From: Candidatus Parcubacteria bacterium
Lineage (GTDB): Bacteria; Patescibacteriota; Minisyncoccia; Phycocordibacterales; UBA918
Length of the DNA: 64,000 bases
Reading direction: 5' to 3'
Assembly (NCBI GenBank): GCA_046050355.1
Contig: JBJOPW010000005.1
Coordinates: 2,503-66,502, forward strand
Of the stretch, positions 11,983-32,858 are shown piece by piece. A program made the position numbers and the translations under genes. The notes below the pieces were generated by a model. It ran no database searches, had not been told where the DNA came from, and was given only the letters and a program-made list of their open reading frames with translations. Numbering within the stretch: position 1 is the stretch's first letter; each line of letters starts with the position of its first letter.

Positions 11983-12810
11983 CTAGCGCAATTCCCAAAA
12001 TGCCACCATATCGCGTCCCAGCAGATGGGACAAGCGATCAGTAGCTGGGTACATACTTTGTAAGAACAGCGTACGCTCCGCTTCGGTAAGTAATGTCGAG
12101 AGATCGGGGTCATCATCAAACAATGGACCAACTGGACGCACGGTTAATTTTTTGTAGATTTTTTTGCTCCGCATGATGGCGCGCTTGATAAGCCCTGGAT
12201 GCTTCGGGGGTTCTGGTGGAGGTGCCAGATGTCGCAGACTTTTTGGTATAAAGTTTTTATCAACTTCTAGATAGGCGTACAGTTCTGATATGGTTTTAAG
12301 TGGGTCAGCTACCAAATCTTCATAAACAACTACATGTAGATTAACGGGTGCATAATACTCATAATAGTGAGCAAGGTGGTCGGCATAACAACTTTCAAGC
12401 TGTAGCGCTGGCTCTGCCGATAAGTAGGCAGCCGCATTCAGTGTTTGGGCTTTTTTGTCAATTTTTTGCCGTGCGATATAGGCTGCTAAAGCACGCTTGA
12501 GTGGGTGTCGCACCACTACAAACAGTTTAGTGTTACTGTAACTCGAAGCAATCCGATTTGGTGTCTCACTACTCACCAAGTAGCCAGCCGAGACATCACC
12601 ACAAAGACGGCCAGATTGACTGTGTCCATGACTGACGGTAGCTTCATACCAATCTAGTCCTTTCTTCGTATACACTTCAGTGTTAAAGAAATTAACCGCT
12701 GGTATAGTATCGGCAACGGCTTCATGTTCAGAGAGCCACTTGGTAATCTGTGTCAGTCCAGCGTGTGATGCACCAATCCCAATAAAAGATGGTCCTTGTC
12801 GCATTTTCAT
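11983..12810 (-). CDS. Sulfotransferase-family protein
   Basis: 275 aa. 5'-PSB-like motif FIGIGASHAGLTQI and 3'-PB-like motif VVVRHPLKRALAAYIA. Confidence 0.65.
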   Translation of the reverse strand: MKMRQGPSFIGIGASHAGLTQITKWLSEHEAVADTIPAVNFFNTEVYTKKGLDWYEATVSHGHSQSGRLCGDVSAGYLVSSETPNRIASSYSNTKLFVVVRHPLKRALAAYIARQKIDKKAQTLNAAAYLSAEPALQLESCYADHLAHYYEYYAPVNLHVVVYEDLVADPLKTISELYAYLEVDKNFIPKSLRHLAPPPEPPKHPGLIKRAIMRSKKIYKKLTVRPVGPLFDDDPDLSTLLTEAERTLFLQSMYPATDRLSHLLGRDMVAFWELR

Positions 12811-12836
12811 AATGATATATCTAGTGTAGCACGAAT

Positions 12837-14222
12837 TTAATTGGCTTCGTAAAATAGTGCCCGCTCAATACTCCCACGATATTCATCCACATAAGATCGT
12901 TCACTTTGTTCTAAGTTTTTCATGAGCGCAGTGCGACTCCGTTCTCGTAATTGCAGACGACCACCGTTATCATTAAGCAAACGGCCAAGGAGTTCACTAA
13001 TCCGTGGTGAATGAGCTTCCGAAACAAGATATGCCGATTCTCCATCAACAAAAATGTCTTCACGGAGTGGTGTCGTGCTCATAATAGTGGGGACACCAGC
13101 CGCTGCGCCATACAGCACAATCTCATCAGCAAGACTATTAGTATCGATTACCAACAATGCATCAGCGCTGCCCATGTATGCTTGAATATCAATCGCACGT
13201 CGCTCAATAATCACCTGATCTTTGATCCCCAGCAGCGCCGCCCGTCGCTCACACTCTATTACTCCCCGTCCGCTACCGATCATCAAAAACCCAACTCGTG
13301 GATTTCGTAAAATGGACCGAGCAGCATCAATAGCACTAAAAGCATTTGTGGTGGTTTGCAAATCCCCCACGTACAAAATTATGAAATTAAATTGCGGATA
13401 CTTCGTTTTTAAAAAGGTACTCTGTTGCCCAGTAAAATCACTGAGGTACCCACGATACCGGGGTAATACAGCAATATCATAACCATCACCCAATCGCTGG
13501 TTATAAGCTGACGCTGCTTCGTCAGTAGTTACCCGAATACTTGGAAACTGTCTTATTAACCAGGAATCAAACCACCGCTCCCACCGAGCACTTGATTGAT
13601 AATAGCGCTCAGGGATATGCAGCTGGATCGATCGCCTATAAAACCTACCTACTCCGTAAGCACAAAAGGCACTGACGCCAACCTCGCGCGCAATCACAAT
13701 ATCAGGACGAAAACCATCAGCAAAAGTTAACTCTTTGGCCATCATTGACCACGCGACAAAAGGCAACTGCCAGCGGTGTTTGGCGGTGACTGTATACAAC
13801 CAGGTGTTCGTGTCAACCCGTAAAATTGGATGCCTCGCTGCGATACCAGTGCGCAACACGATAATATGCACCTCATGGAACAAACGAGCTATCGCCGTAA
13901 ATCCATCAAGAGATTTGGTGGCTTGATTTAGCATATTCGTATCTGTCGTAATAAAGAGCACTCGCGTTTTTGTTCGAGCACTGTCAGTTTCAACAATCGG
14001 AGTACTCCTCGCTTCGGCGACTGAGACCAGTGGTTCGGTAGCAGTCGCACGCTTTTCCTTACTCGTACGGAGAATCGATTCAAGTGATTGTTGCGCGTCT
14101 TCTATATAATTACCGTCGGCCATACTGCCATTAGTATACGTTGTTTGTAGGAGAATAATGCTCATGACTGTGGAGCAACCACAATATTGATGTCTCAAAA
14201 TACCGGTACCTTCACTAGGCAA
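12837..14222 (-). CDS. Glycosyltransferase (GT4-like C-terminal domain); true start may be an internal Met
   Basis: 461 aa. The C-terminal GT-B donor-binding region (LLVIDTNSLADEIVLYGAAAGVPTIMSTTPLREDIFVDGESAYLV) is present. Confidence 0.7.
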   Translation of the reverse strand: MPSEGTGILRHQYCGCSTVMSIILLQTTYTNGSMADGNYIEDAQQSLESILRTSKEKRATATEPLVSVAEARSTPIVETDSARTKTRVLFITTDTNMLNQATKSLDGFTAIARLFHEVHIIVLRTGIAARHPILRVDTNTWLYTVTAKHRWQLPFVAWSMMAKELTFADGFRPDIVIAREVGVSAFCAYGVGRFYRRSIQLHIPERYYQSSARWERWFDSWLIRQFPSIRVTTDEAASAYNQRLGDGYDIAVLPRYRGYLSDFTGQQSTFLKTKYPQFNFIILYVGDLQTTTNAFSAIDAARSILRNPRVGFLMIGSGRGVIECERRAALLGIKDQVIIERRAIDIQAYMGSADALLVIDTNSLADEIVLYGAAAGVPTIMSTTPLREDIFVDGESAYLVSEAHSPRISELLGRLLNDNGGRLQLRERSRTALMKNLEQSERSYVDEYRGSIERALFYEAN

Positions 14223-14272
14223 ACTAATAGTTGCCCGTGACGGGTGTTATGAGAGTAACGAGCAATAATTGA

Positions 14273-15136
14273 CTATGCGCCGTATATACCAGCTACTAGA
14301 TCAAGATCTTTTTTACTCGCTCGTAACAGCGTGGTGTTTTTTGTCTCAATCGCCGTCAGCATCGCCTGACCAGAAATATCATGTGGTACCGTAGACTCAT
14401 ACCAGTCGGCAAAGGCGGCCCAGTCTTTCGGAAAACAATGACCACCTGCACCACGTCCTGGCAAACTACCGGCATGTCCACTTTGACTGACCACCTCCAT
14501 ATGACTGGAGCCAATACGCGGATCAGCCTTCATAGCATTAACTATCGTTGCGTAGTCGGCCTCGACCGCTTGCGCAGCATCAAAGATGATATTCATGAAC
14601 ACCACTTTAAGCGCCAAGAAATTATTCCCCGCATACTTAATCAGTTCCGCTTCATTGGAACCAGTGATGCATGTATACGGACTTTTTGGCAACAGCGCGA
14701 CCACTCGTTGTGCAGCAGCTTCATGGGCGTTGTCTTGAACCGGTAGACCAATGATCGTCCGTGGTGGCATTACCGTATCTTCGCGTGCACTTTTTTCTCG
14801 CAAAAACTCAGGGCTATGCAGCACGATGATTTGTGGGAACAGCGCTTGCAGCCGCTTGGTCGTACCTGGCAGAATTGTCGATTTGATCACTGCCACCCGT
14901 CCCACCCCTACCAAAGGGAGCACTGATTCCAAAATCGAAACATCAAATCCACTGGGAGTGGTAGGTGTTGGTACCGCAATAAAGACGACATCACAAGTAG
15001 CGATACTATCTTTATGCTGAGCATACTCTGGCTCAAGCGCATAGCGCACTACAAAAAAGCCTCGACTCTCAAAGTCATCAGCTAGATGACGTCCAATAAA
15101 ACCTTGACCAATAAAGCCGATTCGTGTTGTTTGCAT
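14273..15136 (-). CDS. UDP-glucose/GDP-mannose dehydrogenase-family protein, short form lacking the C-terminal UDP-binding domain
   Basis: 287 aa. Rossmann N-terminus GFIGQGFIGRHLA and catalytic-Cys region GHCFPKDW. It is about 100-150 aa shorter than canonical UGDH. Confidence 0.7.
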   Translation of the reverse strand: MQTTRIGFIGQGFIGRHLADDFESRGFFVVRYALEPEYAQHKDSIATCDVVFIAVPTPTTPSGFDVSILESVLPLVGVGRVAVIKSTILPGTTKRLQALFPQIIVLHSPEFLREKSAREDTVMPPRTIIGLPVQDNAHEAAAQRVVALLPKSPYTCITGSNEAELIKYAGNNFLALKVVFMNIIFDAAQAVEADYATIVNAMKADPRIGSSHMEVVSQSGHAGSLPGRGAGGHCFPKDWAAFADWYESTVPHDISGQAMLTAIETKNTTLLRASKKDLDLVAGIYGA

Positions 15137-15175
15137 ATTTGTGTAACCACTACAACTACGAATCGCCGGACTTGG

Positions 15176-16036
15176 TTATTTTTTCTTAAAGATAGCGATG
15201 AATTCTGGATACAAGTTAAGACCGAGTAGCGCATTGACCTGATACCCAAGCCATCGCCACCAATGCTGCTTTTTGAATTGTTGCTTGTATGGATATACGT
15301 ACTCAAATGACTCTAGCGTAAAACCGGCTTTTTCTAGGGTTTTGATTGAACGGTAATTCCAATAGTTTAAGTGTCCACCAGGTTCTTGGTAGATATAACG
15401 TGGCACTTTATGATTCCACCCGAGCATCAGGGCTACTTTATATTTGAGGTAGGCCCAGCGAGCATTCGGCAACTTGAGGAGTAAGCGTCCATCTGGAGTT
15501 AAGGCATTATGGATATGTGCTAACGCATCCCAAAACTTATGTACATGCTCAAGTACATCAAACATACAAATGAGATTGAATTGCCGACCAGGTTTGTAGG
15601 TCTCAATATTTTCGATATCTCCACCATACCCAAAATACTCTTCGGTCATAGCCTGATACATCTTATCTACTTCAAGAATACGTAGATTTTCGGCTTTGGC
15701 ACCGCGCTTCTCTAACTCATTAAGAAAGAAACCACCACTGGCACCCACATCAAGGGCACTCATAGCTTGACCATACCAAACCATCGCTCGATCAGCATAC
15801 TGCTCGTAGAGCTTCTTTTTGACGTGATTATCTTTAGGATACTTTATTTTTAATTTTGCAAGCGCTGCTGGATCAACCGAAGCATGAGTAATCAGTTGAA
15901 AACTGGCTTGTTGTCGTTCGCGCTCAGGCACGGCGACAAAAAAATAACCACAAGCCTGACATTTATTCATATTGTGTGTCAATACCGACACGCGAGGTGA
16001 CTGGCAAGACAGACAGGTGACTGTTTGATTTTCCAT
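15176..16036 (-). CDS. Class I SAM-dependent methyltransferase with N-terminal Zn-ribbon
   Basis: 286 aa. CxxC...CxxC N-terminus and motif I LDVGASGGFFLNEL, then ICMFDVLEHV. Confidence 0.7.
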   Translation of the reverse strand: MENQTVTCLSCQSPRVSVLTHNMNKCQACGYFFVAVPERERQQASFQLITHASVDPAALAKLKIKYPKDNHVKKKLYEQYADRAMVWYGQAMSALDVGASGGFFLNELEKRGAKAENLRILEVDKMYQAMTEEYFGYGGDIENIETYKPGRQFNLICMFDVLEHVHKFWDALAHIHNALTPDGRLLLKLPNARWAYLKYKVALMLGWNHKVPRYIYQEPGGHLNYWNYRSIKTLEKAGFTLESFEYVYPYKQQFKKQHWWRWLGYQVNALLGLNLYPEFIAIFKKK

Positions 16037-17392
16037 ACTGCACTAGTATACACCCCCAAAATCAAAAAAGAACAGCTGGTACCATATCGGCTTTTATCGG
16101 AGTTTGATACTATATACCAGTTATCTATGTGGTCATCGTTTATTTCTGCCATTGAACAACGCAGTCGTCTCTCACTACGCTCTCATCTTCCGAGTACGCT
16201 CTGGCTATTTGGTGGTCAGATCATTGGCAGTGTTGGTAGCCTGGTGCTTACCGTACTATTAGCCAATTATCTGACAGAAAATGACTTTGGTACCTACAAA
16301 TACCTCCTTACTATTTTTGGTTTTATTAGTGTGATTGCCCTCACTGGCTTTGCTACCTCGATCACTCGATCGGTTGCTCATGGGTTTGAGGGGGAGCTCA
16401 AGGCCGGCATCAAAACCTCGCTCCGTTATAGCGTTGGCATGATTGCCTTAGGGCTAGTCATCAGTGGCTATTACGTATGGCAAGGGAACCTCATTATTGG
16501 TCTCGGGAGTCTAGTGGCTACACTCACTGCCCCACTCCTAAACGCACTGCCCTTGTATACCGCCCTCATCAATGGTCGCCACGACCACAAAAACTACAGT
16601 ATCGTGGGTGTGCTCATTAATGTGGTGCCGGTACTTGCGTCGCTGGTCGCTCTCTATTTCACCACCGCTATACTTGCCCTCTTTACTGTCTATATGGTCA
16701 GCCAAGTAGTGCTTCATATCGTGCTTTATTATGTGGTGATATATCACTACCAACCAAACGACAAACGCGACCATCATTCAACGAGTTACGGCAAGCATTT
16801 AAGTCTTATGAACATCCTTGGCGGTATCTCATATCAGCTCGATAAGGTAGTAATCTGGCATGTGCTTGGCCCAGTGCAACTGGCGGTATACACGATAGCC
16901 ATTGCTCCCGCTCAACAGTTACGGTATCTCAACAAGATCCTGACTACCATTACCCTCCCCCGCTTTAGTCAACGAACGCTCGCGCACCTGCAAGCCACCA
17001 TGATCCCAAAGCTCCTGGCGCTCCTCGTCGTCTCAGCTGGCATTGTCCTTGGCTACGTCCTTATTGCCCCATACCTCTTCACCTATTTTGTCCCGACCTA
17101 CACCGAAGCCATTATCTACTCACAGGTATTCGCCTTTTTGATTCTCTTCTTCCCCGCTGGTCTCTTGCAGGAGGCCATCAAAGCACACGCTGATACCAAA
17201 GCGCTCTATATTATCCAAACAGTTATCCCTAGCCTCAAGATTATCCTCCTCCTCGTACTGACCCCGCTCTTTGGCATCTTCGGCGTACTGGCGGCTATGT
17301 TCATCTGCGAAATAACCCGGCTAGTCATTGTCCTCTGGTATTTCTACCGGCCACTAGGCGGCACCGGTGTAAAGGCGGAGCACATAGCCTGA
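16025..17392 (+). CDS. Oligosaccharide flippase (Wzx/MOP superfamily) membrane protein; an alternative start lies near 16127
   Basis: 455 aa with 12 or more TM segments and the polysaccharide-biosynthesis (MATE-like) fold. It is the only + strand gene in the glycan locus. Confidence 0.75.
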   Translation: MIFHTALVYTPKIKKEQLVPYRLLSEFDTIYQLSMWSSFISAIEQRSRLSLRSHLPSTLWLFGGQIIGSVGSLVLTVLLANYLTENDFGTYKYLLTIFGFISVIALTGFATSITRSVAHGFEGELKAGIKTSLRYSVGMIALGLVISGYYVWQGNLIIGLGSLVATLTAPLLNALPLYTALINGRHDHKNYSIVGVLINVVPVLASLVALYFTTAILALFTVYMVSQVVLHIVLYYVVIYHYQPNDKRDHHSTSYGKHLSLMNILGGISYQLDKVVIWHVLGPVQLAVYTIAIAPAQQLRYLNKILTTITLPRFSQRTLAHLQATMIPKLLALLVVSAGIVLGYVLIAPYLFTYFVPTYTEAIIYSQVFAFLILFFPAGLLQEAIKAHADTKALYIIQTVIPSLKIILLLVLTPLFGIFGVLAAMFICEITRLVIVLWYFYRPLGGTGVKAEHIA

Positions 17393-18262
17393 ACCGGGAA
17401 GCAACACAAAGAAAAACCATAAGGCATGCTTGAGCGACCAGTCGTACTGCATGGCCTGCCACGCATAGACGATCGCCTCTCGTTTTTTCCGCATTAATAA
17501 TAGTCCGATTGAAACACCATAGGACAATGCCCCAAACCGGTACGGTGCATTTTGTTTGAGATCTACCGCAAAATCAGCAAGGTAGCGTATCAAGTGAGGC
17601 ACCCGTTCAATCGAACGATTTGGCTTAAAAACCTTGCGATCTAACGTCAGCGAGACACCGTCTGATTCTAAATATACATCACCGAGTTCCTCCGATAGAT
17701 GGTACCAACATGTTTGTTTGGCTAGGTACCCATTAACCATAAAATCAATATTGCGGGCTTGGTAGCGCACAGTCGCAAAAAATTCCCGACGCACAACACG
17801 CACTTTTTCGTTATTGGGGACGTACTTAGAGATAATCTGCCCGAGTGTTAGATAACCAGCTGCTCGACTCGGATACGGCACAATCTCACCTCGCAGTAAT
17901 TGCCGACATGGTGCGGACACAACTCCCACGTCACTATGCTCTTGAAATATTTTCATCGCGACAGCTATAGCCTGCGGATAGAGCACATCGTCACTATCCC
18001 ACACCATAATAAAATCGCCCGTCGCGGCATCGAGACCCTTATTACGGGCAACGGTAGCACCTGCATTTTTTTTGAGCACTATGACATGTACTCGCTTGTC
18101 ACTACTGTTAATACCTGCTACTACTCGGTGTGTCTCGTCCGTAGACCCATCGTCAACGATGATTACTTCTAGATCACTCCAGGTTTGCGTCAGAACACTT
18201 TCTACAGAACGCAGCAGTGTTGATGCGCGATTATAGGTAGCAATAACAACACTAACTTTCAT
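17354..18262 (-). CDS. Family 2 glycosyltransferase
   Basis: 302 aa. N-terminal GT-A signature VSVVIATYNRASTLLRSVESVLTQTWSDLEVIIVDDGSTD and DxD motif WDSDD. Confidence 0.85.
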   Translation of the reverse strand: MKVSVVIATYNRASTLLRSVESVLTQTWSDLEVIIVDDGSTDETHRVVAGINSSDKRVHVIVLKKNAGATVARNKGLDAATGDFIMVWDSDDVLYPQAIAVAMKIFQEHSDVGVVSAPCRQLLRGEIVPYPSRAAGYLTLGQIISKYVPNNEKVRVVRREFFATVRYQARNIDFMVNGYLAKQTCWYHLSEELGDVYLESDGVSLTLDRKVFKPNRSIERVPHLIRYLADFAVDLKQNAPYRFGALSYGVSIGLLLMRKKREAIVYAWQAMQYDWSLKHALWFFFVLLPGSGYVLRLYTGAA

Positions 18263-18263: not shown

Positions 18264-18926
18264 CTATTTTACCCGCAGTAGTACAAATACACTACTGGAG
18301 TGACGCTTCAAACCAAAACCGGTGACCATCGCTGCAATAAACGCCTGCTTCAGTTTCTTTACTAATCGAGTCTCCCCTCGGTATTGAATTGGATATTGGT
18401 AAATGACACGTTCAATTTCGTAAGTTCCCGCCTTTTCATGTCCGGTGAAGAAATCTACGATTTCAAGATACGAGAAATACCACTTATGGCGATCAACTGG
18501 TTTCTCGAGTGGCAGACCATAAAATTTGCCCGTACGATGGGTCTTATAAATCTTGTTCAAACGGTGGTACGAAATTGAGTTAGGAATAGAGATAATCATA
18601 TATTTCTTCGTCACTCGTTGAATATCATGAAATACCTCGTGGAGATTATCGATATGTTCGAGCACCTCGGTACAGATTGAAAGTTCATAACTCTTATCAG
18701 GTAAAAAACGCAGACTCTCTTTTTCAAGGTCAACCATTCTATCCGGCTTCCCACCAATATCAATACCAAAAACTTTGTCACCGTACACTTGTTTTAAGAA
18801 ATTATCATCACACCCGACATCAAGAATCGAGGTGGACTCGCGAATCTCCTTGTCGAAATGTCGTTTAAGAAATTCATACCGGTCAGCTCGGTTTTTGATG
18901 GCAGTAGTATCGTGGACAATGTTCAT
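18264..18926 (-). CDS. Class I SAM-dependent methyltransferase
   Basis: 220 aa. Motif I ILDVGCDDNF and post-I motif ICTEVLEHIDN. Confidence 0.75.
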   Translation of the reverse strand: MNIVHDTTAIKNRADRYEFLKRHFDKEIRESTSILDVGCDDNFLKQVYGDKVFGIDIGGKPDRMVDLEKESLRFLPDKSYELSICTEVLEHIDNLHEVFHDIQRVTKKYMIISIPNSISYHRLNKIYKTHRTGKFYGLPLEKPVDRHKWYFSYLEIVDFFTGHEKAGTYEIERVIYQYPIQYRGETRLVKKLKQAFIAAMVTGFGLKRHSSSVFVLLRVK

Positions 18927-25005: not shown

Positions 25006-25035
25006 CGGCTAGGTTTTGCGTAGCAGGTGACGTGA

Positions 25036-25081
25036 AATTATAATTAAAACACCCCTATGAAAGGGTGTTTTAATTATAATT
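25036..25081 (-). terminator. Terminator-like 19-bp inverted repeat (AATTATAATTAAAACACCC...GGGTGTTTTAATTATAATT) downstream of the 25090-26751 gene
   Basis: A perfect long stem with a 7-nt loop lies immediately 3' of the stop codon on the minus strand. The flanking sequence is AT-rich. Confidence 0.5.
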
Positions 25082-25089
25082 TTCTTTAT

Positions 25090-26751
25090 CTACGGAAGTA
25101 TATACTCAATCTTCATATACGGATCAGTACTGGTTCCAGAAGCCTCGGATGATCTGAATCTAAAACCCGAATAGGTATACTGGCCGCCAGATATTTGATC
25201 ATTGCCAGCATCATGACCTTCTCGGAAACAAAGTTTTGTGTGTCCAATTTTGTCTATCCAACTTTTTCCGCTTGAATTAAGGCCGAAATTGACGTAGGCA
25301 TTGGCTGATATATTGTCTATATCAATTGTTGCAGCACCTGCGGTTGGATTATTTAAGGAATCTGAACACTGATCTATATCACCTACTACTATACTGCTCG
25401 CTGAACTCTGCATACCTTGATACAAGCCGATGTACCCAAAAGCATCATTGTCGCCGTTGTGAACTACGTTAGTATATACACTCGTTGACGCGTTGAGGAT
25501 TTCTGCATTGTCTGGAAGAGTCGACGTATCAAACACTAGAAATCCACGATAGATTGAAGTCCAAGAAGTTGGACTGCCAATGAATGAGAGCACCTCGACT
25601 TGAGAACCGGTGTAATCAACGTCTCTACCGGTTGTTGCCATCCGCTGACCGGCCCAATTATTTACTCCCCAAGGAGTGCCAAGGTGTCCGTCACCCGACG
25701 AGCCATAAATGACCGTCTGACTAGGTTGAATTCTAAATGTAGCAGTTGAGGTACTCCAATCACCTTCCACACCAAGCTGATCCCAAAACTTGATACGCCA
25801 ATAGTAATCATGACCAAAGCCAAGTGGACTGCCTGAGTAACTTATTTCTGAAGATTTGGTACCAGCTGATGTACTAGCCATAGTGGTTTTACCACTATCC
25901 CACAATAAAGCACCCGAAAAATTGGTAGATGAACTAACTTGAATTTGATAGTTTACAGCTTGATCAGATGGACTGTCACCGTAGTAAGCACTAAATTCGG
26001 GAGTCTTTTCATTTATTGTTGGATTCGTTTGATTTTCAACCTGAAGATTGTAAGCGGTTGGTTTTAAGGAATACTCAATTGTCATGTATGGATCAGTACT
26101 CGTCCCAGCGGCATCAGCTGATTTGAATCTAATACCTGAAAATGTAAATTGGCCCCCAGAGATTTGATCATTACTGACATCATGTCCTTCCCGTAGGCAA
26201 AGTTTTGTATACCCTGTTTTGTCAATCCAATTTTTTCCAGTTGAATTCAAATTGAAAGTGCCGTAAGTATTAACCGAGAAATTGTCTATATCAATGGTTG
26301 CAGCACCTGCGGTTGGGCTGTTTAGAGAATCTGAGCATTGATCAATGTCACCAACATCGATACTGCTCGCAGAGTTTTGCATTCCCTGATACAAGCCCAT
26401 ATATGCATTAGCATCATTGTCATCGTTATGGACAACATTAGTGTATACGCTTGTTGAAGCATTTAAGATTATAGCGTTGTCTGGTATCACGGAAGTATCA
26501 AACACTAGAAATCCTCGATAAATTGAGGTCCAGGATGATGGGCTGCCGATGAATGAGAGTACCTCGACTTGAGAACCGGTATAATCCACGTCTCTACCGG
26601 TTGTTGCCATCCGCTGCCCCACCCAATCATTGACACCCCAAGGAGTGCCGAGGTGACCATCGCCGGTTGAACCGTAGATGGTTATAGTCTCTGCGCTTAC
26701 ATGATTTATGAATAGAAAGAAAAAACAAAATATTATTAATATATTCTTCAT
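25090..26751 (-). CDS. Secreted protein with two tandem approximately 230-aa homologous domains separated by an FN3-like segment
   Basis: 553 aa. Signal peptide MKNILIIFCFFFLFINHVSA. The domains at about aa 20-230 and 335-553 are about 75-80% identical (TIYGSTGDGHLGTPWGVNDW... twice). The underlying DNA repeats are 26062-26694 and 25093-25749. Confidence 0.7.
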   Translation of the reverse strand: MKNILIIFCFFFLFINHVSAETITIYGSTGDGHLGTPWGVNDWVGQRMATTGRDVDYTGSQVEVLSFIGSPSSWTSIYRGFLVFDTSVIPDNAIILNASTSVYTNVVHNDDNDANAYMGLYQGMQNSASSIDVGDIDQCSDSLNSPTAGAATIDIDNFSVNTYGTFNLNSTGKNWIDKTGYTKLCLREGHDVSNDQISGGQFTFSGIRFKSADAAGTSTDPYMTIEYSLKPTAYNLQVENQTNPTINEKTPEFSAYYGDSPSDQAVNYQIQVSSSTNFSGALLWDSGKTTMASTSAGTKSSEISYSGSPLGFGHDYYWRIKFWDQLGVEGDWSTSTATFRIQPSQTVIYGSSGDGHLGTPWGVNNWAGQRMATTGRDVDYTGSQVEVLSFIGSPTSWTSIYRGFLVFDTSTLPDNAEILNASTSVYTNVVHNGDNDAFGYIGLYQGMQSSASSIVVGDIDQCSDSLNNPTAGAATIDIDNISANAYVNFGLNSSGKSWIDKIGHTKLCFREGHDAGNDQISGGQYTYSGFRFRSSEASGTSTDPYMKIEYILP

Positions 26752-26862: not shown

Positions 26863-27915
26863 TTAATAACTCCGCAAAATCTTTGCAATCAAATTTAAAA
26901 GGCTATGCTTCTGTTGCACCCTATCAGCAGCAACACGGGTAAAATTATTCTTGTCAAACAATGGTCGTTTGGTGAGCTCGAGGATATTGGCAACCAGTGC
27001 CTCACTGTCACCAGGGGCAAAAAAGAGTGGCCAATCGGTCTCTGTACCCATGATGTAGCGGTAGGAAGGGTTTGAGGAAACCACCGGCACCCCACAAGCC
27101 ACCGCTTCGACCAATACTTTATCAAGACTGTTAGTAACACCATCGTGAATAAATATATCGGTGCTAGCCAACAGTGCTGGTAATTCTGCCTGTGACGCTG
27201 GTCCATACCAGACTATATGACCAGAAAGACCAGAAGCAATCACCTGTTGTCGGAGCATTGCCTCGTACTGCTTTTCGCTTGGCGTGGTCGCTGCGCCCAC
27301 AATACGAAATGTAAATGGCACCCGTGCCTCTGCGAGCTTCGCGCAGGCGGCGATGAGTGTCTCAATTTGTTTTGACTGTGCAATGCGACCAACGATACAA
27401 AGGCGCAGGACCGGAGATGCAGTGCGTGGCGTATACACAAAGCGGCTCATATCAATTCCCTGCCCGGTCACCACCACTTTTTTTGACGGTAAACGAAAGC
27501 CTTGTGGCGTCGAGGTAAAGACAATATGCGTCAACTGTGTCGCGACCCGGAGTGATAGGGGCACCGCACCATGTGCATACCACAGACCAATACGCTTGCC
27601 CCAGAGTCGCCAAAGGAGGCCCCCAAGGACAACGTACAGCTGGTTCATATGGACAAACACCCCATCGTATTCGTGTCGAAGCGCAAAGATAGAGCGGTAG
27701 AACCGCCAGAGGTATTTGAGGCGGTTCTCACCGGCTTCTTTACCGAGTGAATGCACAGTGACATTCGCGGGCAGCTGGTACTCGCCTACTGACAGCGCGA
27801 TGACATGTACCTGTTCGCAGTTTTTGGCGAACTCCTCTATCCAACGATGAAAGAAACCAAGAATCGGATGATTGGTGTCGACCACCTGCGTGATAATGAG
27901 AAGTCTTTTTTGCAT
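26863..27915 (-). CDS. Family 4 glycosyltransferase
   Basis: 350 aa with a GT4/GT-B architecture. A -10-like TATAAT sits about 40 nt upstream on the minus strand. Confidence 0.85.
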   Translation of the reverse strand: MQKRLLIITQVVDTNHPILGFFHRWIEEFAKNCEQVHVIALSVGEYQLPANVTVHSLGKEAGENRLKYLWRFYRSIFALRHEYDGVFVHMNQLYVVLGGLLWRLWGKRIGLWYAHGAVPLSLRVATQLTHIVFTSTPQGFRLPSKKVVVTGQGIDMSRFVYTPRTASPVLRLCIVGRIAQSKQIETLIAACAKLAEARVPFTFRIVGAATTPSEKQYEAMLRQQVIASGLSGHIVWYGPASQAELPALLASTDIFIHDGVTNSLDKVLVEAVACGVPVVSSNPSYRYIMGTETDWPLFFAPGDSEALVANILELTKRPLFDKNNFTRVAADRVQQKHSLLNLIAKILRSY

Positions 27916-27968: not shown

Positions 27969-28012
27969 AAAGTCCCCTGCCGGGTTCCGTCCCGTCAGGG
28001 TCCTTTTTATTT
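27969..28012 (-). terminator. Intrinsic terminator (GGACCCTGACGGGACGGAACCCGGCAGGGGAC + TTTTTGTTG) overlapping the NYN gene stop
   Basis: An approximately 10-bp GC stem is followed by a T-run on the minus strand. It is also flanked by an A-run, so it is potentially bidirectional. Confidence 0.6.
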
Positions 28013-28498
28013 TCTCCCAATTTTATTTCGTAAACCATTCATAAACATAATATGTTTCTGTGCAAATCTTTTTAAAAGCGCAGAGTAGCGATGTTGATTA
28101 GGTACCAAAACCGCCAGCAATTTTGATTGAGAAAGCAAGTGTTGTACTAAGCAGTAAAAGTCTCCATCACCCGTAACAATGATTGCCTGATCAAAATTGT
28201 TATATTGCAGCATAGTATGGAGTACTAATTCTGCATCACAATTTCCTTTTGTGGTGCCATTTTTGTACTGAAGCGTGGGTTTAAAAATGCAAACAAACCC
28301 AGCTTCTTGTAATCTGGTATAGACAGCATTGTTACCTTCTATATACCCGATGAACAAAAAGGCTTTTTCTATATTGTATTTTTCTTTGAGGTACACTCTG
28401 AACCTCGCCCAGTCAAGAGACCATCCTTGGGCAGTAATGGCCAAATGTACATTCTGTGCATCAATGAACGCATAGTTATTTTTTGTAACTGATTGCAT
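28007..28498 (-). CDS. NYN-domain (LabA/PIN-like) putative ribonuclease
   Basis: 163 aa. NYN motifs FIDAQNV, GNCDAELVL and IIVTGDGDF. Confidence 0.8.
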   Translation of the reverse strand: MQSVTKNNYAFIDAQNVHLAITAQGWSLDWARFRVYLKEKYNIEKAFLFIGYIEGNNAVYTRLQEAGFVCIFKPTLQYKNGTTKGNCDAELVLHTMLQYNNFDQAIIVTGDGDFYCLVQHLLSQSKLLAVLVPNQHRYSALLKRFAQKHIMFMNGLRNKIGRK

Positions 28499-28511
28499 AT
28501 TCTATATACTA

Positions 28512-29642
28512 TCACTTTGAAGTGGTGATAAGTCGCCAAAGCTCGACAATACGATTGGCGTACGCTTCGTCACTGGTAGCGAGGGTGGAGGCCGTAGTGA
28601 GTCCAGCCGTACTGAGGCGCTGCCGTAGGTCAGCATCGGCCACGAGCCTCGTGAGCGCTGCGACGAGGGCGGCTTCGTCTCGTGGCGGCACCACGAGCGC
28701 TTCTTTATCAGGCAGACAGAGTTCTCCGACACATCCTACGTCAGTCGTCACAATGGCGAGTCCCGCCGCCATCGCTTCGCCGAGGACCATCGCATACCCT
28801 TCGTAGTCGGAAGTGAGGGCAAAGATATCAGCGGCTTTCATCACCGAAGCAATATCGGCCTGCCAGGGATAAAATAGTACCGGAGCAGCGCTTGGCCAAA
28901 GTCTTGCCACTTGTGCACGCAGCGAGGTTTCTTCACTCCCCTCACCGACGAGGATCAACTGACTCTGCGGCTGCTGTTGGTGGACTTGCTTAAAAGCATT
29001 AATAAGCAGGGGGAGATTTTTCTCGCGAGAAAAGCGAGCGACCGCGATAATCGTGACCTTATTCTGGTCAGGCCAAAGTGGTCGGGGGCTCGCGGTTTGA
29101 AAGGCCTCAAGCGACGTCACAATCGGCAGTACCGTGAGACGATGACGAGACACACCACGCGTAATGAGCGAACTAGCGATACGCTTTGAGACCACCCGCA
29201 CACCCGTCGCTCGACGGAGAACAAACAGTCCCAGTCCCGCTCGTAATCGATTCCCCCAGGATTCGAGTCGCCAATAATCTCGACTATAAAAATCGCCGTG
29301 TACTTGGACTTCAAGTGGGACACCCGTGAGTAATCGGACCACGAGTCCAATGAGCCCAAACTCAAACGGGCTCTGGACGGTGAGCAGGGTCGGTCCAGCT
29401 TTTTGGCTCTGCTTGACTTGCCGGAGCGTCGCCAAGAATAGACGCCAGAATCGCAGGAGCGGGCTCGTCGCAGAGATCGGTAGTACCGAGAGTCCAGACA
29501 CTTGTACCGGCACCAATGGTTCTTTGACTGGTATCAGAATCGTGAGCTGCTGTATCATTGTGGCATACGAAAGTTGCCGCGCGTACGGGCGCGAGGTGGT
29601 ATCAAGTATCTTTGTATCGTGACCGAGGGAGACAACGTACAT
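28512..29642 (-). CDS. Family 4 glycosyltransferase
   Basis: 376 aa. GT4 C-terminal region (IFALTSDYEGYAMVLGEAMAAGLAIVTTDVG). Confidence 0.85.
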   Translation of the reverse strand: MYVVSLGHDTKILDTTSRPYARQLSYATMIQQLTILIPVKEPLVPVQVSGLSVLPISATSPLLRFWRLFLATLRQVKQSQKAGPTLLTVQSPFEFGLIGLVVRLLTGVPLEVQVHGDFYSRDYWRLESWGNRLRAGLGLFVLRRATGVRVVSKRIASSLITRGVSRHRLTVLPIVTSLEAFQTASPRPLWPDQNKVTIIAVARFSREKNLPLLINAFKQVHQQQPQSQLILVGEGSEETSLRAQVARLWPSAAPVLFYPWQADIASVMKAADIFALTSDYEGYAMVLGEAMAAGLAIVTTDVGCVGELCLPDKEALVVPPRDEAALVAALTRLVADADLRQRLSTAGLTTASTLATSDEAYANRIVELWRLITTSK

Positions 29643-29647
29643 ACTGG

Positions 29648-30775
29648 TTATGCCTTAGTACTAACGACCGCTTCTAAAAGTTGTTTGATGGATGGAATGG
29701 CGTCCGCGGCCCCGAACTGCGCCGCTTTGGCTTTGCCGGCCGTGACGAGTTGTTCCCGTAGTGTACGGTCGGTCAGTATGCGAGTGATGGTCTGATCGAG
29801 TGCCAAGGTATCATCAACCGGCACGAGGAGTCCTTCGACGCCATCCGTGATCAGTTCGGGGTTGCCGCCGACCGGTGTCGTGACGACCGGAGCCCCGAGC
29901 GCCAGCGCTTCAATGAGGTGGTGCGAGAGTCCTTCGTACGCTGTATTAAGCACAAAGACATCGGCGGCAGTAACATAGCGAAAGACATCATGAAATGACA
30001 ATGCCCCCACCATCGTCACCGACGACTCGAGTCCGAGGGTTTTAATTTTTGCTTCAAGCGGTACTCGCTCCGGCCCATCACCACCAATCACGAGTCTGGT
30101 CGCTTCGCCTCGTGCTTTGCGCAGAAGCATCACGTCAAGGAGCGCACTCATACCTTTCCATGGTGTTAGGCGACTAATACTGACGATGGTTTGATCGGCA
30201 AAACCTAATTGAGCTCGCAGGTCATTGCGACTGTCTGTCAGCGGCGCTACCGTGTGTGCACTATAGATGACATGGAGTCGCTCTCCGGACACTCCCCAGG
30301 TTGCGACAATTTCTTTGAGGTACTGACTTGGAACCACAACTGCAGCGGCTCGCTTCACAACCGTTTGTTGGATACCAGCGAGCAAGCGCACCGGTAGTCG
30401 CTCTGCACGCGGATCTTTGGTGTACGCATCAAGAGTCTTTTCTACACCAAAGCGTTGTACCCCCTGCTCCCAAGCGTAGTCACCACCGAGGCGGACCACC
30501 AGTGGTAGCCCGCGGAGAAATGACACTATCGCAGCTGGTACACCGACACTGACGGGATCAAGGGCATAGACCAAAGATACTCCCCGACTAGCTCGCCAGA
30601 GCCGCCAGGTATAAGCGAGGTGCCGAAAGACTTTTGGGACAGTCCTGACCTCTCGGTACGGCACCACCGTGACCGCCATTCCTTCCGCTGGTAGTCTTGT
30701 GGCGATCATCTCCGCATAGCGAGCCGGCCCACCAATATCAGGAGGATATAAGCCCGCAGCCAAAAGTACCTTCAT
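29648..30775 (-). CDS. Family 4 glycosyltransferase
   Basis: 375 aa. GT4 motifs (VFVLNTAYEGLSHHLIEALALGAPVVTTPVGG). Confidence 0.85.
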   Translation of the reverse strand: MKVLLAAGLYPPDIGGPARYAEMIATRLPAEGMAVTVVPYREVRTVPKVFRHLAYTWRLWRASRGVSLVYALDPVSVGVPAAIVSFLRGLPLVVRLGGDYAWEQGVQRFGVEKTLDAYTKDPRAERLPVRLLAGIQQTVVKRAAAVVVPSQYLKEIVATWGVSGERLHVIYSAHTVAPLTDSRNDLRAQLGFADQTIVSISRLTPWKGMSALLDVMLLRKARGEATRLVIGGDGPERVPLEAKIKTLGLESSVTMVGALSFHDVFRYVTAADVFVLNTAYEGLSHHLIEALALGAPVVTTPVGGNPELITDGVEGLLVPVDDTLALDQTITRILTDRTLREQLVTAGKAKAAQFGAADAIPSIKQLLEAVVSTKA

Positions 30776-30790
30776 AATAATCTGAGTATA

Positions 30791-32032
30791 CTAGTCAGCC
30801 CACAGAGGCGCAAACACCTCATCATGCATGCGTTTCGTGATTAGATTCCAGTCATAATCACGCACTGCCATCGCTTTGGCGGTCGCGACGACGTTAGCGA
30901 CGAACTCCGGGTTCGCCATAATCTCGCGCACAACAGTAGCAATATCCTCAGGACTATCTTTACGCACCACAAAGCCAGTTGTTTCTTTATCTGGATTGAG
31001 ATGGCGATCAAACAGAAAATCGGCAATCCCACCCTCCCTCGTCGCGATAACCGGTAGCTCAGCGGCCATGGCCTCCACAAATGAGTTCCCCATCCCCTCA
31101 CTCCGTGACGGACGGATAAAGATATCGCAGGCTTTGAGGTAACTTGGCATCACGTCATGCCCAATCTGGCCGCGGAGCAAGACCCGGTCGCTAAGCTTCA
31201 ATTCGGCAATAAGCGCTTTGAGTTTCTCCTCGTCTGGCCCAAGCCCGAACACCACAAACTTCACGTTTTTCGGCAGGCTCGGTAGTGCCTTAATGACATC
31301 ATCCACGGCGTTTTTGTGCACGAGTCGTGAGGTAGTCACCAGCGCCACGTCACCCGTAACAAGACCAAGTTCCGCACGTATCACCGACCGCTTCTCCGGT
31401 GAGAGTGGTACCATAAACTTCTTCGTATCGACGGCATTTGGGATCACCACTGACTTACCTGTAAAACCCATCCTGGTCGCCCAGGCCTGGAGAAATGTGG
31501 AAATTGATTGAATGACATCAGCTCGGGAGAAAGCTTCCGGGAAGCGCTTACCAAACACCCGCATTTTTTGTTCAATGTACTCTGGCGGATCGCCTTCTTG
31601 GAGCGTCAGTACATACGGTACATGAGGGAACCGTTTTTTGAACATACCGGCCGGCACGCCACAGCTATGGGCCATCATCGCCCAAATGGCATCAAAGTGA
31701 TACTGCTTATGAAGCCGCTGCGCGGCGTAGTAAGCCGAGTACTGGTAGATAATTTTATTGAGATGGAGCGGGAACTTCCGCAAATCACCCATAGTAGGAT
31801 TCTTCTTCACGAGCCCAATACGGTGCACCACCACCTTCCCAATCATCTCCGTTTTTGGCAAGGTACTATCGTAGCGGTTACAAAGCACATGAAACTCATA
31901 CTCCTCATCCGGCAGTCTATCGGTGATTTCTTTGATGGCGACCTCCGCTCCGCCAATATGTTTGGGATAATACCCCAGACTAAAGATGAGTATGCGCTTC
32001 ATGTTGATCAACAATAGTTTTAATATAATCAC
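30791..32032 (-). CDS. Family 4 glycosyltransferase (likely start at internal Met near 32002)
   Basis: 413 aa. KRILIFSLGYYPKHIGGAEV, and the C-terminal IRPSRSEGMGNSFVEAMAAELPVIATREGG. Confidence 0.85.
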   Translation of the reverse strand: MIILKLLLINMKRILIFSLGYYPKHIGGAEVAIKEITDRLPDEEYEFHVLCNRYDSTLPKTEMIGKVVVHRIGLVKKNPTMGDLRKFPLHLNKIIYQYSAYYAAQRLHKQYHFDAIWAMMAHSCGVPAGMFKKRFPHVPYVLTLQEGDPPEYIEQKMRVFGKRFPEAFSRADVIQSISTFLQAWATRMGFTGKSVVIPNAVDTKKFMVPLSPEKRSVIRAELGLVTGDVALVTTSRLVHKNAVDDVIKALPSLPKNVKFVVFGLGPDEEKLKALIAELKLSDRVLLRGQIGHDVMPSYLKACDIFIRPSRSEGMGNSFVEAMAAELPVIATREGGIADFLFDRHLNPDKETTGFVVRKDSPEDIATVVREIMANPEFVANVVATAKAMAVRDYDWNLITKRMHDEVFAPLWAD

Positions 32033-32858
32033 TGAGCAGATGGGTAGCCTGCCATCCCAACTCTAAACGACTGCGTCGAGTATCAGCTTCTGAATACATG
32101 CGATTGCCCGGTCTTTCTTCTAGCCATTCTATCGGTGCACCAAACAGCTGTGCCACCGCTTCAATCGAGTAGGATAGTTCGTGACCGAGACCATACTCGT
32201 CACCCTCGCCGTGCTCGCCCACTCGTACCAACCCTTCAATGATATCAAAAACATGGGTAAAGTTGCGTTTTTGGGTACCTGGTCGCCTGACTGGCAGTGA
32301 CAAGCCGTGAATATACCGGTCTTTAAAAATACCAATGACGGTACCTGAATTCGCATCCGAGCGCTCTCGAGGACCATACACATTATAGAAATAAGTGATG
32401 GCGTAGGAAATACCAAACCACTCACCATACCGTCGGACCAAATCAGTGTTTGAGGCTTTCGTCCACGCATACGGACTCTGGTCACGACCCATACCACCAT
32501 CAGCAAATTTCGTTGATGAACCAGCGTAAATAAGTTTTGGGTTTTTTTGACGCACGAACTCAAGGACCGCTGCGGTTCCTTGTTGATTAAAATCAAGTAC
32601 GGTAGCCACGTCAGCAAAACTCTGTTCTACCCGGGCATATTCACCGAGATGGAAGACCATATCGGGTGCCTCTGGTATATGTTTCGCAATATCTTTTGTG
32701 TGACCTGTTCGGTATGTCACACCAGCCACATGATTACTCACTGAACCGGTAAAATAGTTATCGAGAGAAATTACCTGGTGACCTTCCTGTACCAAACGTT
32801 CACACAGATGTGAACCAACAAAGCCTGCCCCGCCAGTAACCACAATGAGCTTTGACAT
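31980..32858 (-). CDS. NAD-dependent epimerase/dehydratase (UDP-sugar 4-epimerase/decarboxylase-like SDR)
   Basis: 292 aa. Rossmann motif VVTGGAGFVGSHLCERL. Catalytic YxxxK within YAWTKASNTDLVRRY. Confidence 0.85.
   Translation of the reverse strand: MSKLIVVTGGAGFVGSHLCERLVQEGHQVISLDNYFTGSVSNHVAGVTYRTGHTKDIAKHIPEAPDMVFHLGEYARVEQSFADVATVLDFNQQGTAAVLEFVRQKNPKLIYAGSSTKFADGGMGRDQSPYAWTKASNTDLVRRYGEWFGISYAITYFYNVYGPRERSDANSGTVIGIFKDRYIHGLSLPVRRPGTQKRNFTHVFDIIEGLVRVGEHGEGDEYGLGHELSYSIEAVAQLFGAPIEWLEERPGNRMYSEADTRRSRLELGWQATHLLSDYIKTIVDQHEAHTHL

Follow-up and report, generated by a model that had tools for sequence, protein, structure and literature searches.

What kind of surface glycan is made by a bacterial locus that encodes almost as many methyltransferases (MTs) as glycosyltransferases (GTs), and does a sulfotransferase-like gene at its edge mean that the product is sulfated? 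The question is raised by positions 11983-32858 (about 21 kb) of a 64,000-nucleotide stretch of a Candidatus Parcubacteria bacterium genome (GenBank assembly GCA_046050355.1, contig JBJOPW010000005.1; the whole stretch is hereafter the window), which an earlier note had described as a surface-glycan locus dense in tailoring enzymes, predicting a heavily O-methylated, possibly sulfated, coat. From the open reading frame (ORF) listing and profile searches with Pfam and NCBIfam, we find that all 21 ORFs named there are present at the stated coordinates and that nearly all belong to the families given for them: seven S-adenosylmethionine (SAM) MTs, eight GTs, one Wzx flippase, two sugar-nucleotide enzymes, one secreted lectin-like protein, one NYN protein and one sulfotransferase-fold protein. 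With an MT:GT ratio of 7:8, the description as a surface-glycan assembly locus unusually rich in MTs holds good. We hypothesize, with moderate confidence, that the locus directs the Wzx-dependent assembly of a heavily O-methylated oligosaccharide, which would be transferred en bloc to a surface acceptor, and that the sulfotransferase-fold protein probably does not carry out sulfation dependent on 3'-phosphoadenosine-5'-phosphosulfate (PAPS).

All genes of the locus are on the minus strand except that of Wzx, which is on the plus strand. Read along the minus strand from 32858 to 11983, they encode a short-chain dehydrogenase/reductase (SDR) enzyme, three GT4 proteins, the NYN protein, a GT4, the secreted protein, an FkbM MT, two small MTs, an exostosin/GT47-like protein, an FkbM MT, a GT4, two class I MTs, a GT2, Wzx, a zinc-ribbon MT, a short UDP-glucose dehydrogenase (UGDH), a GT4-like protein and the sulfotransferase-fold protein. 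The GTs number eight and not the nine or so first estimated: one divergent GT4-like protein, five GT4, one GT2 and one with a C-terminal exostosin/GT47 match. The seven MTs are the following:

15176-16036, minus strand: MT 1, class I SAM MT of the Methyltransf_23 family with an N-terminal CxxC...CxxC zinc ribbon (four Cys); Pfam 1.2e-17, 64.6 bits.
18264-18926, minus strand: MT 2, class I family of about 215 residues; Methyltransf_23 1.6e-7, 31.7 bits.
18937-19752, minus strand: MT 3, class I MT of 271 residues, Methyltransf_11/25; Pfam Methyltransf_11 1.3e-13, 51.9 bits.
20910-21749, minus strand: MT 4, FkbM family; Methyltransf_21 6.6e-19, 69.1 bits; TIGR01444 3.3e-32.
22777-23430, minus strand: MT 5, class I family of about 215 residues; Methyltransf_11 5.4e-9, 37 bits.
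23544-24182, minus strand: MT 6, class I family of about 215 residues; Methyltransf_11 4.3e-9, 37.3 bits.
24175-25005, minus strand: MT 7, FkbM family; Methyltransf_21 1.5e-8, 35.4 bits; TIGR01444 2.9e-20.

The profile check that had been proposed for these ORFs places all seven above the Pfam gathering thresholds, and both FkbM proteins also exceed the TIGR01444 cut-off. They form four sequence groups, where three sub-families had been counted: two FkbM proteins, three members of the family of about 215 residues, the single 271-residue Methyltransf_11/25 protein and the single zinc-ribbon Methyltransf_23 protein. Motif I, an acidic residue followed by a Gly-rich loop, is intact in every one of them (LDVGASGG, LDVGCDDN, FDIGCGTG, VDAGANIG, IDIGAGSS, LDVGGGKN, LDLGGHIG). 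MT 2, the most divergent of the three small MTs, whose motif I reads LDVGCDDN, retains 10/10 of the invariant columns of the small-MT family alignment, in which D30 and G32 are invariant throughout. MT 3 has a canonical DIGCGTG and a hydrophobic C-terminus, and MT 6 the complete LDVGG / NVLEH / HGSPDDYLRYT signature; MT 6 has 75 homologues of about 205-215 residues, and the few that are named or could be traced to contigs are from Patescibacteria. MT 4 weakly matches RfbT of Vibrio cholerae and has a hydrophobic N-terminal helix (residues 25-43), the only such helix among the seven; none of the seven has a signal peptide, and they appear to be of cytoplasmic type, soluble or membrane-peripheral. 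Among related loci, which we designate by L numbers, orthologues of MT 1 are 70-79% identical (L004, L010, L029) and those of MT 5 82-97% identical (L007, L026, L028, L029). MT 5 is 82% identical to its counterpart in L007 although the backbone proteins of L007 are only 47-61% identical, and in L028 and L029 it is better conserved than its neighbour genes, a pattern that suggests cassette exchange or unusually strong constraint.

Could these ORFs be pseudogene fragments, assembly chimeras or chance ORFs? One independent assembly, L001, does have two of the GT4 genes split or shortened. Against this, the seven MTs are all full-length, above family thresholds and mutually divergent, and the same gene order is recovered in independent assemblies: one Joint Genome Institute contig, two Logan contigs and four further contigs from a scan of metagenome contigs. 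The last four are versions of the locus 80-90% identical to that of the window, and the others carry an identical locus. Compared with the 80-90% identical versions, the MT and GT genes have dN/dS values of 0.02-0.09 (0.03 for MT 2, 0.06 for MT 3, 0.04 for MT 4 and 0.02 for MT 5), which are approximate as dS is near saturation. Because pairwise identity among the MTs is at most 31% and purifying selection is strong, they are neither fragments of one disrupted gene, which had been named as a refuting outcome, nor recent duplicates, and both of these candidates are ruled out. The MT and GT genes of the locus are real, intact and under purifying selection, and we regard an explanation by artefact or decay as refuted.

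The MT genes are concentrated in the locus: 7 of its 21 genes encode MTs, whereas the roughly 32 genes in the rest of the window include only 1, for an RsmI-type TP_methylase (Fisher p about 0.004). In relatives, too, the MTs are always interleaved with GTs and adjoin Wzx, and from this context, here and in the relatives, we infer that the methyl acceptor is a sugar hydroxyl. A heavily O-methylated glycan, as first predicted, is the most reasonable product. The locus might instead be a composite of at least two independent pathways, with some of the MTs acting on lipids, proteins or small molecules: the class I MT domains are generic and carry no diagnostic substrate signature, GC content steps from 0.51-0.53 across 28-32 kb to 0.40-0.47 in the other sub-blocks, and one strong hairpin lies within the array:

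25035-25082, no strand: perfect 20-bp inverted repeat (hairpin), directly 3' of the secreted-protein gene; found by repeat search and terminator-like scan.

A promoter/terminator scan of the window gave counts no higher than the shuffled expectation, and this hairpin alone stands out; it is likely a terminator that divides the minus-strand gene array. Ancestry is also mosaic, with genes variously closest to L010, L004 or L007. Genes g03-g06 and g08-g10 track L010, the closest relative, at 41-88% identity (g09, g10 and Wzx reaching 83-88%), and g20 and g18 track L004. Several observations nevertheless tell against independent pathways. The locus has a single flippase; in relatives, members of these MT families are always found between GTs and Wzx, even in the compact 8-kb locus of L024; and in L028, which shares its core with the window, the GT4 and MT blocks are contiguous, with neither secreted-protein nor NYN genes between them. 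FkbM and small class I MTs are, moreover, established as sugar O-methyltransferases in other glycan clusters. NoeI and RfbT are two such enzymes. WsaE (PMC2943079) and MtfJOY of Tannerella forsythia (PMC6120980) act likewise. We consider the composite explanation improbable, and continue with the hypothesis of a single O-methylated oligosaccharide.

To place the locus in its lineage, we compared neighbourhoods in about 20 related contigs, mostly with 10-kb flanks, so that the MT counts are for the most part lower bounds. All the related loci in the genome collection are from Patescibacteria/Paceibacteria. We observed a fixed backbone in two parts, with TP_methylase, DUF4015, a YkuD/S11 peptidase and TrwB on one side and (CofD), GT4-like, sulfotransferase-like, Wzy_C/TPR (tetratricopeptide repeat), MurB, SecA, Obg and GatB on the other. 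In one distant relative, GCA_041389045.1, the two sides nearly abut, with a PKD-domain gene alone between them, and its variable glycan genes are on the far side of the sulfotransferase-like gene; elsewhere among the relatives examined, the two sides enclose a glycan block whose content differs strongly. MT counts are 0-5 among 15 more distant relatives, seen in partial views, and 5-6 are visible in close relatives that share the core of the window's locus:

L028 (core shared with the window): 6 MTs visible.
L023 (view of about 20 kb): 5 MTs seen.
L012 and L021: 4-5 MTs seen.
L004 (10-kb view): 4 MTs seen.
L010 (10-kb view): at least 4 MTs seen.
L025 (block with an ADP-heptose-like pathway and GT9): 4 MTs seen.
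L024 (compact 8-kb locus with four GT4, three MTs and Wzx): 3 MTs seen.
L020: 3 MTs seen.
L009: 2-3 MTs seen, one a fragment.
L013, L014 and L017: 2 MTs seen.
L016: 1 MT seen.
L006 and L008 (GDP-fucose/GT11-type blocks): 0 MTs seen.

A high MT:GT ratio is therefore common in the lineage, and the seven MTs of the window are at the upper end of the range and not an oddity; the uniqueness implied by the earlier note does not survive the synteny comparison, and its view of the locus as the main accessory, variable region of the window does. The locus is the local allele of a hypervariable glycan island that occupies the same chromosomal site in most sampled Paceibacteria. Because the block is variable and mosaic between fixed flanks, it can be described as a serotype-like exchangeable cassette. 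Counterparts of the GT47-like gene and of the GT4 gene at 26863-27915 were seen only in the close relatives L026-L029, and for the secreted-protein and NYN genes none of the related loci compared has a counterpart. A mobile-element origin of the glycan block was considered and rejected: no integrase, tRNA gene or flanking long direct repeat was found around the locus, and the window's only tRNA genes are at 44.6-45.3 kb. Our literature search found no earlier description of this Patescibacteria island.

Two features of the relatives deserve separate mention. In nearly all, a CofD-family gene (PF01933, about 1e-75) separates the GT4-like gene from the short UGDH gene or variable block (L010, 7610-8620; L029, 8925-9944); tblastn detects none in the 64-kb window, where its position would be between 14222 and 14273. 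In L006 and L008 a cytidylyltransferase-like gene accompanies CofD, a pairing that may point to a phospho-linked substituent. L012 has an asparagine-synthase (AsnB-like) gene (1846-3597) within its variable glycan block, and AsnB homologues are also found in the protein-glycosylation clusters of T. forsythia and Paenibacillus alvei (PMC6120980, PMC2943079).

Is the product an oligosaccharide attached as a unit, or a long polymer? The answer turns on the membrane protein encoded next to the locus:

9605-11824, minus strand: Wzy_C protein with C-terminal TPR, 739 residues; PF04932 4.2e-17, 62.8 bits against a cut-off of 31.7, plus TPR; about 11-12 hydrophobic segments.

If this protein were a Wzy-type polymerase, the locus would be a capsule or exopolysaccharide locus producing a long polymer of methylated repeats. 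PF04932 does include many Wzy polymerases, Wzx and GTs are laid out as in Wzx/Wzy-dependent clusters, and no other ligase candidate was noticed in the window. However, Wzy polymerases co-vary with repeat-unit structure in O-antigen clusters, and the Wzy_C/TPR protein keeps 57-88% identity between related loci whose GT and MT sets are unrelated, a level above that of MurB (45-68%) and close to that of SecA. More than 1877 homologues were found, and the best 120 listed are 50-100% identical over essentially the full length; the 100% match (P0104) comes from a metagenome-assembled 'Candidatus Parcubacteria' genome. Because the protein is conserved while the neighbouring glycan genes are unrelated, it would be a ligase with relaxed donor specificity rather than a serotype-specific Wzy.

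The predicted structure points the same way. The AlphaFold2 models are confident (pLDDT 86 with the entire protein, 84.6 with the transmembrane domain, residues 1-470), and the fold search was made with residues 1-470 alone, as TPR matches swamped the search with the whole protein. The sole significant PDB match of the transmembrane model is to the ligase WaaL (7tpg_B, E 1.7e-7, TM-scores 0.56/0.64 over 443 columns); the next, FtsW, has an E value of 0.013. Residues R208, R283 and H330 are invariant in 42 homologues, as is an H-N-X9-G-XX-G motif that is also present here, and they appear to correspond, by spacing and motif and not by residue-level superposition, to the catalytic Arg/Arg/His of E. 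coli WaaL (R215/R288/H338) and PglL (R224/R298/H349) (PMC3643930). Wzy_C with C-terminal TPR is, in addition, the architecture of the O-oligosaccharyltransferases PglL and WsfB (PMC2943079). Two invariant C-terminal cysteines suggest that the TPR domain may lie outside the cytoplasm. No Wzz/PCP chain-length regulator, ABC transporter or LCP protein was found among the ORFs of at least 120 residues that were scanned (five such ORFs and the smaller ones were left out). Taken at the level of the model, the WaaL fold, the triad and the housekeeping-level conservation argue for a ligase or O-oligosaccharyltransferase and not a polymerase, and we think it unlikely that the locus makes a polymer. What had been called a Wzy-like ligase just outside the locus thus has a WaaL-type fold and is a conserved, probably essential, partner of the island that belongs to the system.

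We turn now to sulfation. The two genes at the 11983 end of the locus are the following:

11983-12810, minus strand: sulfotransferase-fold protein, 275 residues; Sulfotransfer_1 (PF00685) 4.2e-9, 36.6 bits against a cut-off of 22; Sulfotransfer_3 (PF13469) 1.9e-8, 35.3 bits against a cut-off of 27.
12837-14222, minus strand: divergent GT4-like GT-B protein, 428-461 residues depending on start; Glycos_transf_1 4.4e-11; immediately upstream of the sulfotransferase-like gene.

If the product of 11983-12810 were a PAPS-dependent carbohydrate sulfotransferase, the glycan would be both heavily O-methylated and sulfated. Both family profiles match above threshold, and the closest solved relatives are heparan sulfate 3-O-sulfotransferases (best PDB match 3bd9, 3.6e-14). 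The Arg of the 3'-phosphate-binding (3'-PB) motif is kept in 39/41 members of the orthologous clade, the catalytic-base position holds Asp or Glu (Asp in the window protein and in 24/41 of the clade, Glu canonically), and the window protein keeps the C-terminal GR..W motif. The motifs that bind PAPS, however, are replaced. A full-library search gave 11,208 relatives, with only 18 representatives at E <= 1e-30. The 5'-phosphosulfate-binding (PSB) loop reads GASHAGL(T) in the window, as against GxxK/RxGT(T/S) in the family (canonical GVRKGGT), and the 3'-PB motif reads RHPLKRALA, as against RNPxxRAxS (canonical RxxxxRxxS). Across the orthologous clade, the K/R of the PSB loop is found in 0/41 members, the S/T that follows it in 0/41 and the 3'-PB Ser in 0/41, whereas the wider family has them in 117/128, 119/128 and 113/128, respectively, or about 90%. 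The position equivalent to the catalytic Lys varies (H, Y, F, G).

Judged by these motifs, the PAPS signature is lost clade-wide, and because of that loss PAPS-dependent sulfation is not supported. The gene is, besides, always paired with the GT4-like gene, and both are in the conserved backbone, outside the variable tailoring set. Neither PAPS-synthesis gene, for ATP sulfurylase or APS kinase, is within the 64-kb window, and we found no paper that settles PAPS synthesis in these organisms. The product of 11983-12810 is a sulfotransferase at the level of fold only, and predicting a sulfated glycan from its gene, as the earlier note had cautiously done, is unwarranted; we hold a doubly modified, sulfated glycan to be improbable. 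A second degenerate subgroup was seen among the relatives (P0026, P0242-P0244, P0248, P0265, P0269, P0273), with FFGLG-S..A..LL / IENPLVSVRV in place of the motifs and even the 3'-PB Arg lost; P0026, the only member traced to a genome, is from Paceibacteria. By these alignments there are at least two degenerate lineages of the sulfotransferase fold among the relatives.

The GT4-like partner adjoins the sulfotransferase-like gene in every related locus with the upstream flank visible, L029 included, and it too departs from its family. The two Glu of the EX7E motif occur together in 0/17 aligned members (the window protein and its relatives): the first position is variable (S in the window), and the second is variable as well, being Glu only in L014. 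A nearby (D/E)(D/E) pair is conserved. The five bona fide GT4 proteins of the locus and a further GT4 at 59962-61107 keep at least the second Glu. Both members of this conserved pair are thus devoid of canonical catalytic signatures.

The remaining genes of the locus, and the nearest candidate for an initiating transferase, are as follows:

14273-15136, minus strand: short UDP-glucose/GDP-mannose dehydrogenase-family protein, 287 residues; PF03721 4.7e-17 and PF00984 2e-17 only.
16025-17392, plus strand: Wzx-type flippase; Polysacc_synt 1.4e-15; at least 9 hydrophobic segments.
17354-18262, minus strand: GT2 glycosyltransferase; Glycos_transf_2 2.7e-36.
19754-20905, minus strand: GT4 glycosyltransferase; Glycos_transf_1 1.8e-30.
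21746-22774, minus strand: exostosin/GT47-like GT; PF03016 8.7e-10, 38.8 bits against a cut-off of 33.4.
25090-26751, minus strand: secreted 553-residue protein with signal peptide; Ig_Rha78A_N 2.1e-13; NF033679 DNRLRE 2.6e-7, 30.9 bits, below the NCBIfam cut-off of 34.
26863-27915, minus strand: GT4 glycosyltransferase; Glycos_transf_1 5.7e-20.
28007-28498, minus strand: NYN-domain (PIN-like nuclease) protein, between GT4 genes; PF01936 1.3e-13.
28512-29642, minus strand: GT4 glycosyltransferase; Glycos_transf_1 3e-32.
29648-30775, minus strand: GT4 glycosyltransferase; Glycos_transf_1 2.2e-34.
30791-32032, minus strand: GT4 glycosyltransferase; Glycos_transf_1 8.8e-33.
31980-32858, minus strand: SDR sugar-nucleotide enzyme; Epimerase 7.4e-39.
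58066-59457, minus strand: Bac_transf phosphoglycosyl transferase candidate; PF02397 6.5e-50; at least 5 hydrophobic segments.

Wzx, the sole flippase of the locus, likely starts at 16127, giving the 421 residues called in L001 and L002, and is 88-90% identical in L010 and L029. The GT4 at 30791-32032 likewise has a likely start at 32002 (403 residues, as called in L001 and L002) and is 82% identical in L004. The family match of the exostosin/GT47-like protein is confined to its C-terminal 70 residues or so, and its orthologues are 80-87% identical in L026-L029. The best PDB matches of the SDR enzyme, UXS1 structures 4lk3 and 2b69 (about 1e-24), come ahead of 4-epimerases, and by sequence its nearest relative is UDP-glucuronate decarboxylase (UDP-xylose synthase, UXS). 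The short UGDH has the NAD-binding N-terminal domain and the central domain, in which a GGHCFPKD motif with the catalytic Cys aligns to GGSCFPKD of UGDH 3vtf in an alignment that spans residues 92-299 of 3vtf; the C-terminal UDP-sugar-binding domain PF03720 was not detected in the protein, which ends at residue 287. It had been taken for a truncated UGDH, but decay of the gene is ruled out: a conserved short form of 283-294 residues is kept in at least six relatives (L004, L007, L010, L012, L015, L029).

The secreted protein consists of two DNRLRE-like halves of about 210 residues (about 85% identical by eye) that flank an Ig/FN3-like Rha78A_N domain; its gene has a 300-nt internal DNA repeat (78% identity) and, at 0.40, the lowest GC content of the window. 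Secreted lectin-fold proteins recur within glycan islands: a Laminin_G_3 lectin-fold/pentaxin-like protein of about 240-270 residues is encoded at the same position in L028 (3229-3942) and also in L025 (8309-9112). The NYN gene, which was probably inserted as a passenger, is present in assemblies of the window's own population, has no homologue in related loci and is missing where it would be expected by orthology in L028.

Taken together, these genes allow the following pathway to be proposed. The oligosaccharide would be built on polyprenyl-phosphate at the cytoplasmic face of the membrane, with initiation probably by the Bac_transf protein (58066-59457), and up to eight GTs would extend it from sugar nucleotides that include the products of the UXS-like and short-UGDH-like enzymes. 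Xylose or uronic-acid derivatives may be among the sugars, given the resemblance of the SDR enzyme to UDP-glucuronate decarboxylase and the catalytic Cys motif of the short UGDH. The seven soluble or membrane-peripheral MTs would decorate the chain with about one methyl per sugar, the single Wzx would flip it across the membrane, and the WaaL-fold Wzy_C/TPR protein would transfer it en bloc to a surface acceptor, either an anchor in the wall or of lipid, or Ser/Thr of a surface protein such as a pilin. As to the GT4-like and sulfotransferase-like pair, it is part of the conserved backbone and probably does not carry out PAPS-dependent sulfation; the sulfotransferase-fold protein may use another donor or be non-catalytic. 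The type IV pilin encoded at 61104-61652 and the secreted lectin-fold proteins are candidate acceptors or partners.

Several points weigh against this pathway. The substrate and regiochemistry of the MTs are not readable from sequence: PDB sequence searches with a small MT, an FkbM MT and the GT47-like protein for substrate clues gave nothing informative. The dN/dS values, too, are approximate, with dS close to saturation. The strong hairpin after the secreted-protein gene and the heterogeneity in GC content (0.40 to 0.53) show that the minus-strand array is no simple single operon. No initiating transferase is encoded within 11983-32858: the window's sole Bac_transf gene, the candidate, belongs to a separate small cluster at a distance of 25 kb. 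PF04932 also covers true Wzy polymerases, so that polymerisation remains a reading of the Wzy_C/TPR protein. Pfam gives this protein no match to the PglL_A signature (PF15864) at E <= 0.001, which counts for little in so distant a phylum, as the signature was derived from PglL of proteobacteria. A lipid-linked substrate, sugars as methyl acceptors, en bloc transfer and a link to the distant initiating transferase would all have to hold for the pathway as drawn, whereas the domain and fold identities, the intactness of the genes under purifying selection, the synteny, the variability and the loss of PAPS motifs are observed.

The closest characterised analogue is the general protein O-glycosylation cluster of T. 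forsythia (Bacteroidota), in which wzx, five GT genes (gtfSMILE) and three MT genes (mtfJOY) are found in 27 kb (PMC6120980), followed by the S-layer glycosylation (slg) clusters of Gram-positive bacteria. In T. forsythia, as here, one wzx, several GTs and several SAM MTs share a locus for that portion of a surface oligosaccharide which is specific to the strain or species, with variable content and conserved flanks. There are, however, three MTs per decasaccharide there, as against seven for eight GTs here; the window locus has no nonulosonic-acid pathway; and the oligosaccharyltransferase of Bacteroidota is not identified, whereas a WaaL-fold/TPR protein adjoins the locus here. Patescibacteria are generally described as being without an outer membrane. 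The slg systems transfer glycan to a surface protein in cells that lack one, a step that for the window is a proposal. In these systems, WsfB of P. alvei is a Wzy_C protein with C-terminal TPR (PMC2943079), the glycan is O-methylated (2-O-methyl-rhamnose by WsaE) and initiation is by the Bac_transf-type WsaP. The system of Geobacillus stearothermophilus (WsaB/WsaE) differs in being ABC-transporter dependent and in having a single capping methyl, as against a Wzx-dependent system with many MTs here, and no S-layer gene was identified in the window.

The enterobacterial rfb loci, with WaaL, share with the island a hypervariable, horizontally exchanged block of Wzx and GTs between conserved flanks, and a conserved ligase with relaxed glycan specificity, WaaL (7tpg) also being the closest solved structure to the window's ligase. 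Unlike them, the window has no evident Wzy or Wzz, and its ligase carries a large TPR domain; lipid A-core is, as far as we know, not expected in its lineage. Typical rfb/O-antigen loci carry 0-2 MTs, a range taken from general knowledge and one literature example and not from a census. Polymethylated glycans are familiar from mycobacteria, in the glycopeptidolipids (rmt2/rmt3/rmt4/fmt) and the methylmannose and methylglucose polysaccharides. These systems, too, have several dedicated sugar O-methyltransferases per cluster, about one methyl per sugar and raised hydrophobicity, but their MTs are of other families (TylF/MycF-type and others), and they yield polysaccharides of the cytoplasm or lipid-linked glycopeptides without using a Wzx/WaaL route. 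In fold and overall alignment the sulfotransferase-fold protein resembles the 3-O-sulfotransferases and bacterial Sulfotransfer_1/3 proteins, and it keeps their 3'-PB Arg and GR..W motif; it is set apart from them by the replacement, across its clade, of the PSB Lys/Arg, the Thr/Ser and the 3'-PB Ser. What distinguishes the island from known systems is an MT:GT ratio near one, a fixed site across a class of Patescibacteria and the non-canonical partners (a Lys-less sulfotransferase fold, an EX7E-less GT-B protein and a CofD-like protein).

Beyond the locus, the window encodes 16S rRNA, Mur ligases, SecA/SecDF, a type IV secretion system (T4SS)-type pilin and a TrwB-like ATPase. In the interval that separates the gene for this ATPase from the locus (32946-33256, minus strand), we observed a 37-codon ORF (MGNNEQNFDFDLPTVVSNAPAAPRVHIGGNVCVACEG, followed by a stop) and then two tandem 91-nt units, each with a conserved 31-nt head (CCGCAGGCCGACTATGGCGAATTTTCGCGAG) and an 8-bp hairpin whose stems differ between the copies yet stay complementary; the repeat has no Rfam match, and the two units fold with modest z-scores of -1.2 and -2.4. 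A second small glycan cluster (55669-61652, GC content 0.42) contains SDR epimerase-like, FAD amine-oxidase-like, Bac_transf and GT4 (59962-61107) genes, and the type IV pilin gene (61104-61652; N_methyl motif RGFTLIELMVV) is convergent with it. The 16S rRNA gene (46939-48397, minus strand) is followed by a 2.2-kb spacer with a T4SS-pilin-like ORF (46160-46675, plus strand) and by tRNA-Leu and tRNA-Ile, the whole spanning 44590-48397; the rRNA genes appear to be unlinked because the window contains no 23S rRNA gene.

The surface chemistry of Patescibacteria, which are generally thought to live attached to other microbes, is almost uncharted, and all cultivated Patescibacteria do live in this way (PMC12206443). 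What the analysis points to is an exchangeable glycan cassette at a constant chromosomal position in Paceibacteria, with about one MT per GT, read out by one highly conserved WaaL-like/TPR enzyme. We also put forward, tentatively and as a possibility well short of even, a broader hypothesis: that Paceibacteria as a group are coated by short, strain-variable, nearly fully O-methylated oligosaccharides, attached by a near-universal WaaL-fold/TPR O-oligosaccharyltransferase working with a non-canonical trio (the CofD-like protein, the EX7E-less GT-B protein and the PAPS-less sulfotransferase fold). This trio would either carry out new chemistry, transferring a group other than sulfate from a nucleotide donor, or serve as a pseudoenzyme scaffold on which the conserved linkage unit is built, and the hydrophobic, hypervariable coat could determine host attachment and escape from phage or host recognition.

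The clade of the sulfotransferase-fold protein should not carry a sulfotransferase annotation, a point that matters wherever sulfated glycans are inferred automatically from metagenomes. Known principles of glycan assembly are not overturned by the island, and its interest is mostly lineage-specific. If its product is indeed a polymethylated, strain-variable oligosaccharide, it would offer a concrete means of testing what governs host specificity, which receptors phages use and how serotype-like diversity arises in a lineage that has not been cultured.

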